Notes: generated by a model not told the origin, from the letters alone. A stretch of DNA of 64,000 nucleotides from Candidatus Nomurabacteria bacterium (GCA_016699365.1 CP064973.1:64195-128194), one strand, 5' to 3'. Shown: positions 59,298-63,562, numbered from the stretch's first letter. A program made the numbers and translations.

Positions 59298-59402
59298 TCT
59301 GGCGACTACCTACTTTTGCCCTAAGACTATCATCGGCACAACAGCGCTTAACTTCTTTGTTCGGAATGGAAAAAGGTGTGACCACTGCGTCAAATCACCA
59401 GA
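59298..59402 (-). rRNA. rrf: 5S ribosomal RNA
   Basis: Minus strand TCTGGTGATTTGACGCAGTGGTCACACC...CCGAACAAAGAAGTTAAGCGCTGTTGTGCCGATGATAGT...GTCGCCAGA aligns with bacterial 5S (CCGAAC...GAAGTGAAAC...GCCGATGGTAGT). Ends pair as helix I. Confidence 0.8.
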
Positions 59403-59937
59403 ACAAAACATATATTTTTTCTATGGAACGAAATGTGTATTGAAAAACACCTCGGCAGGTACGACGGTACCGTACGGAGAAAATTTCTAGCAAGAAATTT
59501 TTGTGTGTTTTGAAATATACATGAGTGTATATTGTATGTGATTTTCAGATTTCCTAATAGGAATCGAATAATTAGTACTTCTCGGCTCAACACATTACTG
59601 TGCGTACACCTAAAGCCTATCAACGTGATCATCTCTCACGGTTCTCAAACGATTCCTTATCTTAGGGGGGGCTTCCTTCTTAGATGCTTTCAGAAGTTAT
59701 CCCTTCCCGACATAGCTACCGAGCAGTCCATTTGGTAATAGAGCTCGTACACCAGAGGTCAGTCCACTCCGGTCCTCTCGTACTAGGAGCAGCGCCCTTC
59801 AAGAATCAACGAGCGCAGTAGATAGGAGACCAACCTGTCTCACGACGGTTTGAACCCAGCTCGCGTACCTTTTTAATTAGCGAACAGCTAAACCCTTGGC
59901 AGCTTCTCCACCGCCAGGATAAGGTGAGCCGACATCG

Positions 59938-60299
59938 CTGTCGATTTATCTCAAGAAAAATAAAAAACTTTTCAATCTTTCTTGAGAGTCTTCTGTCACC
60001 AGAAGGATCGGACTATATCTTCATCCTTTCATATAAATATGATTAGGAGATTGGCGTTTAGTCTCTGAGGATTCTTCATGTCTTTTGTAAAAAAGATTTA
60101 GAAGTCTTTCCTGCTGATTGTCTCAACATGCATAATTTTTTAAAACCACTCAGTATATTCTTTCGAATTGCTGTTTGGGTATATGCATTTAAAAGAGAGT
60201 TCCAGCATTTGGCCAATTTTTTGTATCTTTTATTTTGCTATCTACAACAAATATAAAAGACGGCTAATAATATCTCTATCATGGCACCCCGATATGTTA
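59938..60299 (-). mobile_element. group I intron (362 nt, ORF-less) in 23S rRNA domain V (E. coli ~2500 region)
   Basis: Exon sequence ...GGAGTTCGGCACCT | [insert] | CGATGTCGGCTC. 5' exon ends in U, insert ends in G. The insert contains S-element AAGATATAGTCC (plus 60010-60021, rc) and R-like TCAGAGACTAAACG. Confidence 0.75.
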
Positions 60300-60869
60300 A
60301 GGTGCCGAACTCCGCCGTCGATATGAACTCTTAGGCGGAACTAGCCTGTTATCCCCGGAGTAGCTTCTATCCGTTAATCTTCGGCCGCATCTAATGCGTA
60401 CCATCGGTTCACTAGGTTCTGCTTTCGCACCTGCTCGAGATGTCCCTCTTACAGTCAAGCCAGCTTGTGCCCTTACACTATCGGCACGATTTCCATACGC
60501 GCCTAGCTGACCTTAATAAACTCCTCCGTTACTCTTTAGGAGGATACCGCCCCAGTAAAACTACCCACCAGATACTGTCTCTCTGTGTTTTTGCCACAGG
60601 GATTAGAATATACATGTCACAAGAATGGTATTTCACTGACGAGTATTACACAGCCGAGACCGTGCACATAACCTCTCCCATCTATGCTACGCAGGTAAAA
60701 CGTATATTCAATATCAAGTTGTAGTAAAGCTTCCGGGGTCTTTTCGTCTATCTGCGCTTAACCGGCATCTTCACCGGTATTGTATTTTCACCGAGCTATT
60801 CCCCGAGACAGTTCTCCAGTCATTACACCATTCGTGCGCGTCGGAACTTACCCGACAAGGTATTTCGCT

Positions 60870-61075
60870 CTTCTATACCTAAGAAGGACTCTATCTTCAT
60901 CCTCTCTTTCGAGGTGGGATGCTTGACGCTGGTCTCTCGTTAGTCAAGTTTGGACCACATATCATTACTGACATGTAGGTAGCTTTCGAATGATTTAATA
61001 ATTTTTTAATTTAATTGTTTACCTTTTTCTACAACAGTCCCAGTCCTTTCACATACAACCGAAGTCATATGCGAA
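60870..61075 (-). mobile_element. small group I-like intron (206 nt, ORF-less) in 23S rRNA at the GGTCCTAAGGT|AGCGAAAT site (E. coli ~1917 region)
   Basis: Conserved exon junction GGTCCTAAGGT ... AGCGAAATaCCTTGTCGGGTAAGTTCCGAC interrupted by a 206-nt AT-rich insert containing AAGATAGAGTCC (S-like) and GAGAGACCAGCG (R-like). Exon ends in U, insert ends in G. Confidence 0.6.
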
Positions 61076-63365
61076 ACCTTAGGACCGTTATAGTTACGGC
61101 CGACATTCACCAGGGCTTATATCAGTCAGCTTCTCCCTACCCGAAGGCAGAGAGAAACCGCCGATATTTGACCTTCTCGCATTGGTCAGGTGTCACCCCC
61201 TATACATCCTCTTACGAGTTCGCAGGGAGCTGTGTTTTTGGTAAACAGTTGCCAGAGATACTTTCGCTGCGCCCCCCATAATGGTGAACTACAATATAAA
61301 TACTGAAGTCACCATTATGGGGGGAAGCCTTATTCCGAAGTTACGGCTGCTTTTTTGCCGAGTTCCTTGGGGAACACTCACTCGTTCGTCTTGGTCTTCT
61401 CGACCCGATCACCTGTGTTGGTTTGCGGTACGGTTTCTGTTCTGTTATGCTTAGAAATTTTTCTTGGAAGCGTGCTTTGTAAAATTTACATGGGCGAACC
61501 CACATATTTATGCTCTACTTGGATGTCGCTTTTACGCCAGTTTCCGGATTTGCCTAGAAACCACCCTCATAGCACAAACAGAAATCCAATAATCTGCTCT
61601 ACATACTACCCTCCGTCCTTCCATCGCACAGAAAAGAAGTCATGGAATATTAACCATGTGTCCATCACGTTCGGCTATCGCCATCTGCTTAGGACCGACT
61701 AACCCTTGGCTGATCAACATCGCCAAGGAAACCTTGATCTTTCGACGTGCAGGGATCTCACCTGCATTGCGGTTACTTGTGCCAACATTCTTACTTCGAC
61801 ACGCTCCAGCATGGGTCACCCCTTTGCCTTCAACGCAGAGTCGAATACTCTCCTACCACTCCATATTTCCTCAGAAATATGAAATCCTCAAATTCGGTAC
61901 AATGCTTAGCCCCGATTATCTGCGGCGCGGAATCTCTTGATGAGTGAGCTGTTACGCTTTCTTTAAATGATGGCTGCTTCTAAGCCAACATCCTCATTGT
62001 CGAAGAAATTCCACATCCTTGGTTTGCACTTAACATTGATTTAGGGACCTTAATTAGAGATCTGGGCTGTTTCCCTTTTTACTGACGGAGCTTCGCCCCC
62101 GTAGTCTAACTGCTGCGCTTTTAACTCTTGGTATTCGGAGTTTGATAGATGTCGCGAGATTGCTCCCTGTCGAAATCTTCCAGTGCTCTACCCCCAAGAG
62201 GAACGCACAACGCTAGCCCTAAAGCTATTTCGGAGAGAACCAGCTATTACCAGGTTCGATTAGCTTTTCACTCCAACCCACAAGTCATCCGAGAGTGTTA
62301 AACGGCTCACCGGTTCGGGCCTCCAGTGTGATTTCTCACACCTTCACCCTGCTCATGGGTAGCTCACCTGGCTTCGGGTCTTATGTATACTACCAATTAC
62401 GCGCTATTAACACTTGGTTTCCCTGCAGCTCCAGTCTTTTAAAACTTTAGCTAAGCAGCATACATAAACTCGTTGGCTCATTCTTCAATAGGCACGCCAT
62501 GGCGGACCCGAAGGCCCGCTCTGACTCTTTGTAAACATATGGTTTCAGGTCTATTTCACTGTCCTTTCGGACTACTTTTCACCTTTCCCTCACGGTACTA
62601 GTTCACTATCGATCTCTACATGTATTTAGCCTTGCCGGTTAGTTCCGGCGGATTCCCTCAAGCTATTCGTGTCTTGAGGTACTCAAGAATGACAACAAAA
62701 GAGATATATTAATTTCGTGTACCGGGCTATCACCGTCTTTGGCGTTGCTTTCCAACAACTTCTACTATCAATACATTTTGTAACTCTTTACGTAATAAAA
62801 CGTCGTTATCACCTTACAACCCCGATTAATAATATCTTGCGACATTATCATTCGGTTTGGGCTCTTTCCATTTCGCTCGCCGCTACTTCGGAAATTTTGT
62901 CCTTACGGACTTTGTTTTCTTTTCCTCCAGGTACTGAGATGTTTCACTTCCCTGGGTATACTCTTTTTGATTAATCAAAAAGTTATTGAGGTTTACTCAA
63001 TAGGGTTTCCCCATTCGGAGATCTTCGGATATATCGGTTGCTAGGCACCTCCCCGAAGCTTATCGCAGCCATGCTACGTCCTTCATCGCCATGTAGAGTC
63101 AAGGCATCCACCATATGCTCTTAATTTCCTATTAGGAAATCTAAAAACCACATACTCACTAAATACTCTCTCCGGAATATTTAGTGTTTTGAATTCATAC
63201 TAAAACCAAAATCCAACCGCTTGGATAATATCAATATCTAGTATGAATTCACTCTGTTTACGACACGACTTAAAAGACCCCATGTTCTAGATAACCTAGA
63301 ACAAAAAGATTGTATGCCGTAACAGAATTCAGTTTTCAATGAGTAATCGTCCGGTAAATTTTTGA

Positions 63366-63392
63366 CTAAAAAAACCGCCATTTGGCGGGCCA
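63366..63392 (-). terminator. rho-independent terminator upstream of the 23S promoter region
   Basis: Minus strand GCCCGCCAAATGGCGG hairpin followed by TTTTTTT. Confidence 0.5.
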
Positions 63393-63532
63393 AGCTAAAA
63401 CAAAAGAGTTTTAGAATCCCCGCTTAGACTTTGTTTTGTTAGTTATATTCATAACAGTACAAAGAGTATATAGGAACCAAAATCCAATGTCAAGCTTTTT
63501 CTTGTAATATTCTGAGAGTATTAAAATATAAT

Positions 63533-63562
63533 AAAAGCCCTTAAAAATAAGGGCTTTTTAAA
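63533..63562. terminator. bidirectional rho-independent terminator
   Basis: aagccc-ttaaaaataa-gggctt hairpin flanked by A/T runs, directly after the 63567..63920 gene. Confidence 0.55.

Follow-up and report, generated by a model that had tools for sequence, protein, structure and literature searches.

A 23S-5S rRNA gene pair without an adjacent 16S gene, carrying two group I-type insertions, in a Patescibacteria genome

Results

The window analysed here is a 64,000-nucleotide (nt) stretch of a Candidatus Nomurabacteria bacterium genome (CP064973.1:64195-128194). Near its end, the minus strand carries a 23S ribosomal RNA (rRNA) gene and a 5S rRNA gene, which are the subject of this work. Both genes were located by Rfam searches and adjoin each other on the same strand in a unit of about 4.2 kilobases (kb) with the order promoter, leader, 23S, spacer, 5S and terminator (Table 1). 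The original prediction, made from the sequence alone, had described a 23S-5S pair with neither a 16S gene nor a transfer RNA (tRNA) gene between the upstream protein gene and the 23S gene, which was borne out by Rfam and ARAGORN. The Rfam search of the entire 64-kb window gave no match to small-subunit (SSU) rRNA, and the sole tRNA gene of the window is Ser(GGA) at 50031-50118. In the 866 nt visible 5' of the 23S gene, a protein gene is followed by a terminator and a promoter. This 16S-free stretch would reach about 1.18 kb if the extension of the protein gene expected from homology is added, and 59 kb without a 16S gene lie on the other side. The spacer between the two rRNA genes had been estimated at about 165 nt and is corrected here to the length given by the Rfam boundaries. 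It differs by insertions and deletions (indels) from the spacer of L004, a relative with 94 % nucleotide identity.

Table 1. Coordinates of the 23S-5S unit and associated features in the window.
Feature	Position	Strand	Remarks
Upstream protein gene, 3' part, 143 codons	63567..64000	-	Truncated by the window end; reading frame open up to 63998
Intrinsic terminator hairpin of the upstream gene, AAAAGCCCTTATTTTTAAGGGCTTTT	63558..63533	-	Terminator scan; invariant in L001 and L002
Predicted sigma-70-type promoter, TTGACA-17 nt-TATACT	63493..63465	-	11/12 hexamer matches, best of the region
rRNA leader	63458..63135	-	About 324 nt; about 95 % identity among window, L001 and L002
Terminator-like hairpin CCGCCAAATGGCGG + T7	63388..63375	-	Terminator scan; conserved in L001 and L002
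23S processing stem, 5' arm	63155-63126	-	Inverted repeat, 30 nt
23S rRNA gene	63134..59553	-	Rfam RF02541, 2226 bits, model positions 1-2925 (full length), bacterial
Intron 1, 206 nt	61075..60870	-	After E. coli U1931; compact, no open reading frame, group I-derived, without P4-P6
Intron 2, 362 nt	60299..59938	-	After E. coli U2500; canonical group I, no open reading frame
23S processing stem, 3' arm	59563-59534	-	Pairs with 63155-63126
23S-5S spacer	59552..59403	-	150 nt (Rfam boundaries); no tRNA (ARAGORN)
5S rRNA gene	59402..59297	-	Rfam RF00001, 68.3 bits; 106 nt, short form
Intrinsic terminator after 5S	59269..59252	-	Terminator scan
RNase III gene (rnc)	19307..20032	-	Signature NERLEFLGD; Pfam Ribonucleas_3_3 (2e-36), Ribonuclease_3, dsrm

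The 23S gene spans 3,582 nt compared to the 2,925 positions of the Rfam model. This excess is due to the two introns inside the gene, and 3,014 nt are left once both are removed. Apart from these, an expansion of about 70-80 nt in domain I (window 62774..62841, minus strand; E. coli ~286-289) is present in all relatives examined and comprises 67-115 nt in L128-L130; it is lineage-specific and not an intron. In the helix IV/V region of the 5S rRNA, 5 nt occur where the Rfam model has 17, and short 5S genes are also found in L004-L007 and L128-L130. Since the terminator after the 5S gene overlaps the GTG start codon of a predicted open reading frame (ORF) of 275 amino acids (aa), the next gene is taken to start at the ATG at position 59206, yielding a protein of 259 aa like its homologues.

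The upstream protein gene had been placed at 63567..63920. This extent is wrong because only the 3' part of a gene truncated by the window is present, as indicated by the lack of a stop codon up to the edge and by the 247-aa ortholog. Its product is 87 % identical to residues 105-247 of this 247-aa ORF in L001, a contig of a Candidatus Paceibacterota metagenome-assembled genome (MAG), and about 310 nt of the gene are expected past position 64000 by homology to it. A Pfam search with the ORF gave no matches, and the protein yielded no relatives as a query of the metagenome scan. The second contig with a match, L002, belongs to another MAG of the Candidate Phyla Radiation (CPR). At L002:10001-10081, the 247-aa gene is cut down to a remnant of its last 27 residues, behind which the terminator, promoter and leader are intact. 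The 247-aa gene is thus dispensable, and the conservation of the rRNA promoter region does not depend on it. A match to the small RNA SpF51 at 63532-63581 was rejected, as it reached 24.8 bits against a threshold of 50 and corresponds to the terminator hairpin of the upstream gene.

The promoter candidate lies just past this terminator. In the alignment of the window, L001 and L002, the -35 motif TTGAC and the -10 motif TATACT are invariant and the 17-nt spacer between them is variable, which is the pattern expected of a functional promoter. It is predicted to drive the 23S-5S unit, and the start of transcription was placed at about 63458 based on the position of the -10 motif. The original prediction of a protein gene, two terminators, 23S, spacer and 5S on the minus strand thus holds for the gene order and for the first terminator, which belongs to the upstream gene, but not for the second hairpin. 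Because the latter is located downstream of the predicted promoter, it sits inside the rRNA leader, where it may act as an attenuator or as a target of antitermination.

The leader hairpin and its T7 run are found about 70-80 nt downstream of the predicted start, and two CUCUUU-containing stretches precede them (~63400-63460). We take these stretches to resemble the boxA antitermination elements of rRNA operons. Together with the hairpin, they could form an attenuator or antitermination module.

The flanks of the 23S gene form a stem of 30 continuous base pairs (bp), 93 % of which are Watson-Crick pairs and the two exceptions G·U pairs. The free energy of the cofolded arms is -48.6 kcal/mol, flanking extensions included. 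Of these pairs, about 21 are located beyond the mature 5' end of the 23S rRNA. A perfectly complementary stem of about 20 bp had been predicted; its length agrees with this outer part, but the complementarity is not perfect. As the arms are identical in the available relatives, covariation in the stem is not assessable. In classical rrn operons such as those of E. coli, RNase III cuts the long stems flanking the 23S rRNA. The RNase III gene of the window is complete, with a catalytic domain and a double-stranded RNA-binding domain, and its product is presumably the enzyme that would cut the 23S stem.

The protein encoded downstream of the 5S gene has more than 130 homologues, of which the named ones come from Nomurabacteria, Parcubacteria or Patescibacteria. 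Judging by these matches and those of the upstream protein, the host is a Paceibacteria-like bacterium of the CPR/Patescibacteria. The closest matches to Candidatus Paceibacterota and Patescibacteria MAGs agree with the reduced-genome host that had been proposed. The synteny was compared across L001, L002, L004-L007 and L128-L130, which share the gene order L10-L7/L12 ... mechanosensitive channel ... 23S-5S-259 aa-RodA-FolD-PAP2-SecD-SecF. No SSU rRNA or tRNA gene was found 5' of the 23S gene within 10.9 kb in L001, 10.5 kb in L002, 6.3 kb in L128, 5.2 kb in L129 and 5.6 kb in L130. Likewise, no 16S or tRNA gene is present within 10 kb downstream of the unit in the relatives where this region is visible. 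With more than 1500 bp between 16S and 23S as the definition of unlinked rRNA genes (Brewer et al., 10.1101/705046), these five relatives are unlinked; for the window itself, the stretch shown to be 16S-free measures 866 nt, or about 1.18 kb with the homology-based extension. The contigs L128-L130 are independent and long (106-357 kb), and each spans the whole unit with the same flanking genes. The junction from the upstream gene over terminator, promoter and leader into the 23S gene is about 95 % identical in the two independent assemblies L001 and L002, and the junction of 23S, 5S and the downstream gene recurs in L004-L007 and L128-L130.

The sites of both introns were mapped by alignment and by anchors to the E. 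coli 23S gene (L003:390-3293). Intron 1 is located at the H69-H71 junction and intron 2 in the peptidyl-transferase centre. Both are preceded by U and terminate in G, and their removal restores the universal sequences UAAGGU followed by AGCGAAAU and GGCACCU followed by CGAUGUCGG. Neither contains a sense-strand ORF of at least 50 aa.

Intron 2 reaches 80.1 bits with the Rfam model Intron_gpI (RF00028; gathering threshold 50) and covers the full model (1-253) including P3-P9 and P4-P6. Its P1 consists of GGCACCU paired with GGGGUGCC, with a U·G wobble at the splice site, and its last nucleotide is the omega-G. The 5' exon GGCACCU is followed by an intron that contains AUCG-GGGGUGCC and ends in ACAG before the 3' exon CGAU, with which AUCG pairs as P10. 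The fold has a z-score of -5.9. A homologous intron of 466 nt with identical P1 and core strands is present at U2500 in the distant relative L006/L007, whose neighbouring protein is 47 % identical. Between the window and L006, both strands of P2 have changed with the pairing kept, as far as two sequences can tell. By its modelled structure, the L2500 insertion is a canonical group I ribozyme, and guanosine-dependent self-splicing is predicted for it. A five-sequence MAFFT alignment had placed intron 2 after E. coli position 2592; this was dismissed as an alignment artefact, since the anchors place it after U2500 in the window and in L006.

Further insertions were observed in the 23S genes of relatives. 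In L128 (6265-9704), L129 (5160-8732) and L130 (5615-9082), insertions of 351-480 nt occur at about E. coli 2593, a classic group I site that is distinct from the L2500 site in the anchor mapping. These score below the Rfam group I gathering threshold and may represent another divergent or reduced intron class. In L006 (296-522 and 1024-1323), additional insertions add up to about 170 nt near E. coli 1163-1222 and to about 240 nt near 1712-1769.

Intron 1 scores only 22.2 bits with Intron_gpI against the same threshold, with an E-value of 0.017 in a 5-kb search and 0.0009 in a 271-nt search, and 89 model positions between the P3 strands are left out of its alignment. Its final ~45 nt (GGAUGAAGAUAGAGUCC-P9-G) are almost the same as in intron 2 and in the group I consensus for J8/7-P7, and GAUGAAGAUAGAGUCC agrees with both. 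L1931 introns in which the J8/7-P7-P9 signature is followed by the post-1931 exon occur in at least 120 metagenome contigs. Among the matches listed, 107 L1931 introns are complete, of which 83 are 624-782 nt long and 24 are 187-346 nt long and ORF-less. The long introns among these matches encode single-motif LAGLIDADG proteins of 100-200 aa, with the Pfam domain LAGLIDADG_1 found for one representative.

The short L1931 introns fall into two classes. Class A has a canonical P4-P6 (UAUGCGGGAA...CAAUCCGCAGG...CCUCAGAGACUA), and the P3 strands of class B enclose only about 15 nt (UAACGAGAGACCAGC). Class B has at least 12 members, namely the intron of the window and those of L031, L033, L038, L046, L050, L053, L065, L078, L097, L120 and L129, the last being a syntenic Patescibacteria MAG. 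The class A introns of L044, L049, L060, L091 and L113 possess the 5' domain of class B, but have at least ~85 nt with UAUGCNGGAA...CAAUCNGCAGG between their P3 strands. Based on this shared 5' domain, class B looks like a derivative of these class A introns in which the P4-P6 of at least ~85 nt was replaced by 3 nt. In alignments of more than 100 nt, the host exons of class B are 79-90 % identical to those of the window and about 69-77 % identical to E. coli, which points to a diversified family in CPR-like hosts and not to one recent copy. The intron is present in L129 and absent in L006, L128 and L130, whose 1931 sites are intact. Such a patchy distribution is typical of mobile introns.

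The structure of class B was derived from ten distinct sequences with RNAalifold and a hand-built pseudoknotted model, and controls were obtained by sliding the pairing partners by 1-3 columns and from 500 shuffles. In the model, 95.9 % of the cells are paired compared to 36-44 % in the slid controls, and 25 of the 56 pairs show compensatory changes on both sides. The covariation score of 0.415 compares to at most 0.09 in the slid controls and was reached by none of the 500 shuffles. The supported helices are the 5' hairpin, a GUAA-capped P2, P3 with compensatory changes in four of its six pairs, P8, P9 and a helix of [G/U]GAC with GUC[C/A]. In addition, an intron segment GGGACNG pairs with CNGUCCU of the exon (E. 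coli 1920-1926), and this exon clamp covaries with the exon differences in L031 and L065.

The junctions of intron 1 are AAGGU at the 5' exon, with U at position -1, and GAAG at the intron end before the exon AGCG, the final intron nucleotide being G. In all ten members, a guide GCU-ACCU is exactly complementary to the ligated exons AGGU and AGC (P1 and P10); as it is invariant, it provides no covariation for or against these helices. U1931 faces A in the GCUACCU of all class B introns and G in class A (GCUGCCU or GUUGCCU). P7 of class B (GAC/GUC) has three pairs, which are invariant, and both the U·G wobble at the cleavage site and the P4-P6 domain are absent. According to this model, the L1931 insertion derives from group I in a reduced form that keeps P1/P10, P2, P3, P7, P8, P9 and the omega-G and has an additional helix, the clamp on the upstream exon.

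Two alternative pairings were discarded. The Rfam alignment presents the first hairpin of intron 1 as a generic P1/P2, but the comparison shows that the P1 loop holds a large insertion and that the guide follows about 90 nt downstream. The 5'-domain GGACU was tried as an alternative partner for P7, and the UGAC/GUCA covariation in three related sequences favours pairing with the GUC[C/A] after P2.

An RNase III-excised intervening sequence (IVS) was also considered for both insertions. IVS occur in the variable helices 9, 25 and 45 of the 23S rRNA, with their ends paired into a long stem. Both insertions, however, interrupt universally conserved single sites, and the ends of intron 1 are unpaired with each other in the covariation-supported fold. 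The insertions do not fit this candidate. The sites 23IS2 and 23IS4 are listed as IVS-type sites in PMC11270868.

Discussion

The preferred interpretation, with a probability of about 0.85, is a stand-alone 23S-5S transcription unit with RNase III-type stem processing, from whose pre-23S rRNA two endonuclease-less group I-type introns are removed. The host would possess a single such unit, with the 16S gene elsewhere in its genome. Transcription would start at the unit's own sigma-70 promoter, run through the leader, the 23S gene, the 150-nt spacer and the 5S gene, and end at the terminator 28 nt past the 5S gene. The flanks of the 23S rRNA would then pair, and the RNase III encoded in the window presumably cuts the stem and frees the pre-23S rRNA. 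Finally, the introns after U1931 and U2500 would have to be excised to restore the universally conserved 23S sequence. Judged by the motifs present, the unit has separate transcription signals, with a terminator before it, a promoter with 11 of 12 matches and a terminator after the 5S gene. The original prediction of unlinked 16S and 23S genes in a reduced-genome bacterium is supported by the protein gene, terminator and promoter 5' of the 23S gene and by the 16S-free neighbourhoods in the five relatives. As far as the data reach, neither of the two findings named beforehand as contradicting it came up, these being a 16S gene directly past the window end with no terminator in between and a misassembly at 63.2-63.6 kb.

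Several points weigh against this interpretation. A strong terminator-like hairpin with a T7 run is located between the proposed promoter and the 23S gene, so that transcription must read through it or escape by antitermination, unless it truly starts elsewhere. Only 866 nt 5' of the 23S gene are seen in the window, and the search of the window did not locate the 16S gene of this genome. Homopolymer frameshifts in the window leave single-base errors in the rRNA region possible. The L1931 intron is below the Rfam threshold (22 vs 50 bits) and lacks P4-P6 as well as the U·G wobble, and its ability to self-splice is doubtful. The identity and order of the genes, the insertion sites, the conserved architecture in relatives and the RNA secondary structures are shown by the analysis; promoter use, RNase III cleavage and splicing are predictions from sequence.

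The most serious competing explanation concerns the L1931 insertion, which may no longer be a working ribozyme. It could be retained in the mature 23S rRNA or be removed by nucleases or with a protein cofactor, possibly fragmenting the 23S rRNA. This is considered less likely than not, though it deserves attention, as P4-P6 is absent, P7 is limited to three invariant pairs, the U at the splice site pairs with A and the Rfam score of 22 bits is under the threshold. Engineered P4-P6 deletions of the T4 td ribozyme react about 1000-fold slower and thus retain about 10^-3 of the activity (PMC2879505). The L1931 intron of Simkania is reported to stay unspliced, as cited in PMC11270868 and PMC1995217. 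On the other hand, class B keeps the guide complementary to the ligated exons, the terminal G and the J8/7-P7 core. The compensatory changes in P2, P3, P8, P9 and the exon clamp across ten diverged members argue that an RNA function linked to the splice sites is under selection. Furthermore, site 1931 lies in a functionally critical, universally conserved stretch, and small degenerate group I introns in fungal rRNA, with only P1, P7 and P10, can still splice in vitro (PMC3160393).

A further proposal can be put forward only tentatively. Class B would be a family of introns in CPR 23S genes that derives from group I, occurs in nature, has diversified and is precisely excised despite the loss of P4-P6 and of the U·G wobble. 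If so, it would correspond in nature to the P3-P7 minimal catalytic domain obtained by engineering. Like the latter and the small fungal introns, it retains P1, P10, P3, P7, P8 and P9 without P4-P6. The T4 td deletion variant is artificial and about three orders of magnitude slower, unlike the natural L1931 family, whose activity is hypothetical. The fungal introns are nuclear, 56-81 nt long, located in SSU rRNA and derived from IC1 introns, in contrast to the bacterial 23S introns of about 190-240 nt with strong covariation. For the fungal introns, exon sequence has been proposed to stabilise the reduced intron (PMC3160393), which is analogous to the exon clamp at L1931. Perhaps the 5' domain, by clamping exon positions 1920-1926, compensates for the lost P4-P6. 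In a non-exhaustive literature search, group I introns devoid of P4-P6 came up only as engineered ribozymes and as small fungal introns, with no description of natural bacterial ones, and the compact L1931 family is possibly a new variant.

Compared to an L1931 insertion that is not autocatalytic, the remaining explanations for the locus are far less probable. It is very unlikely that a 16S gene follows directly beyond the window end in a linked 16S-23S-5S operon, with the protein ORF and the hairpins being incidental. This idea draws on the short visible stretch 5' of the 23S gene and on the window ending inside an ORF. However, the ORF is a real conserved gene given its identity to the 247-aa ORF of L001; it continues past the window end, and a conserved terminator and promoter follow it. 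Furthermore, L001, L002, L128, L129 and L130 have only protein genes over 5-11 kb 5' of the 23S gene, and an arrangement in which a protein gene and a terminator separate 16S from 23S would not count as a classical linked operon anyway.

An assembly artefact, namely a collapsed or chimeric join near 63.2-63.6 kb, is even less plausible. Assemblies often break or are wrongly joined at rRNA genes, the contigs L001, L002 and L004-L007 all end inside the 23S gene, and the coding genes of the window contain homopolymer indels. A misassembly is nonetheless improbable because the same junction is carried by the independent assemblies, with the leader side conserved in two MAGs and the whole unit spanned by three long contigs. 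Equally remote is a decaying pseudogene copy with a second canonical operon elsewhere, as two insertions in essential 23S regions and frameshifts in neighbouring genes might indicate, given that the 23S and 5S genes are full-length and high-scoring, the conserved sequence is recovered exactly once the introns are removed, conservation extends to promoter, leader and processing stem, and relatives have the same single locus at the same place.

The stand-alone 23S-5S unit agrees in most respects with the unlinked rRNA genes described by Brewer et al. The 23S and 5S genes adjoin in the same orientation without an upstream 16S gene or spacer tRNA, protein genes flank them and the host is a CPR bacterium with a reduced genome. 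Patescibacteria are listed among the clades with predominantly unlinked rRNA genes, which have also been found in Deinococcus-Thermus, Rickettsiales and Helicobacter and are tied to slow growth and symbiotic lifestyles (10.1101/705046). The same study reports that RNase III is rarer in genomes whose rRNA genes are unlinked. Contrary to this trend, the genome examined here keeps RNase III and a long 23S processing stem; no other substantive difference was noted, and the location of the 16S gene lies outside the window. As in the rrn operons of E. coli, a duplex of leader and trailer encloses the whole 23S rRNA and the genome encodes RNase III. Unlike in E. coli, the stem belongs to a unit without 16S, and its cleavage is a prediction.

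Group I introns are abundant in CPR 23S genes, including 222 ORF-less ones and LAGLIDADG_1-bearing ones at site 1931 (PMC11270868, Tsurumaki et al. 2024), and they were also reported by Brown et al. 2015, as cited in PMC11270868. The two introns described here resemble them in their location in the 3' half of the 23S gene, near the peptidyl-transferase centre and at site 1931, in being ORF-less forms at sites that elsewhere carry LAGLIDADG_1 genes, and in their patchy occurrence among relatives. A loss of core domains, as seen in intron 1, is not described there. Site 2500 or L2500 was not found as a numbered intron site in the text and supplement of PMC11270868 or in the other literature searched. 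Intron 1 shares the identical site after U1931 with the known L1931 introns and the J8/7-P7-P9 signature with the long metagenomic ones bearing LAGLIDADG_1. However, the known introns comprise 654-700 nt with an endonuclease gene and a complex P5 region. In contrast, the intron of the window has 206 nt and no ORF, lacks P4-P6, has U-A in place of U·G in P1 and carries an additional 5' domain, which is paired with positions 1920-1926 of the exon.

Since both unlinked rRNA genes and introns in rRNA genes have been described from the CPR before, the locus is a further instance of both, and the 23S-5S organisation itself matters little as one more case of known traits of this group. An annotation of the locus should give the 23S gene two introns and a mature length of about 3,014 nt, mark the upstream ORF as incomplete and assign the second hairpin to the leader instead of treating it as a gene terminator. 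What most deserves attention is the compact L1931 family. If the L1931 intron splices, it would show the natural limit of reduction of a group I ribozyme and whether or not exon-binding periphery can replace P4-P6. If it fails to splice, it would be the second case after Simkania of a ribosome that tolerates or otherwise processes an insertion at H69-H71.

Additional observations

The genes for RodA/FtsW (57303..58423) and the PAP2 phosphatase (55903..56476) are each split into two ORFs in the window, and each is a single gene in L004 (373 aa and 190 aa). The two sequences differ by single-base indels in T-homopolymers at 57978 and 56117, and a third indel occurs in a run of G at 51971. Errors in sequencing or in the consensus, as are typical of long-read assemblies, are a more probable cause than pseudogene formation.

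In L130 (1425-1688 and 2767-3126), free-standing GIY-YIG ORFs flank the L10-L7/L12 genes, and in L129 (18983-20515) a serine recombinase is located beside a tRNA-Ser(GGA) gene. Both point to mobile elements close to the conserved gene neighbourhood of these relatives.

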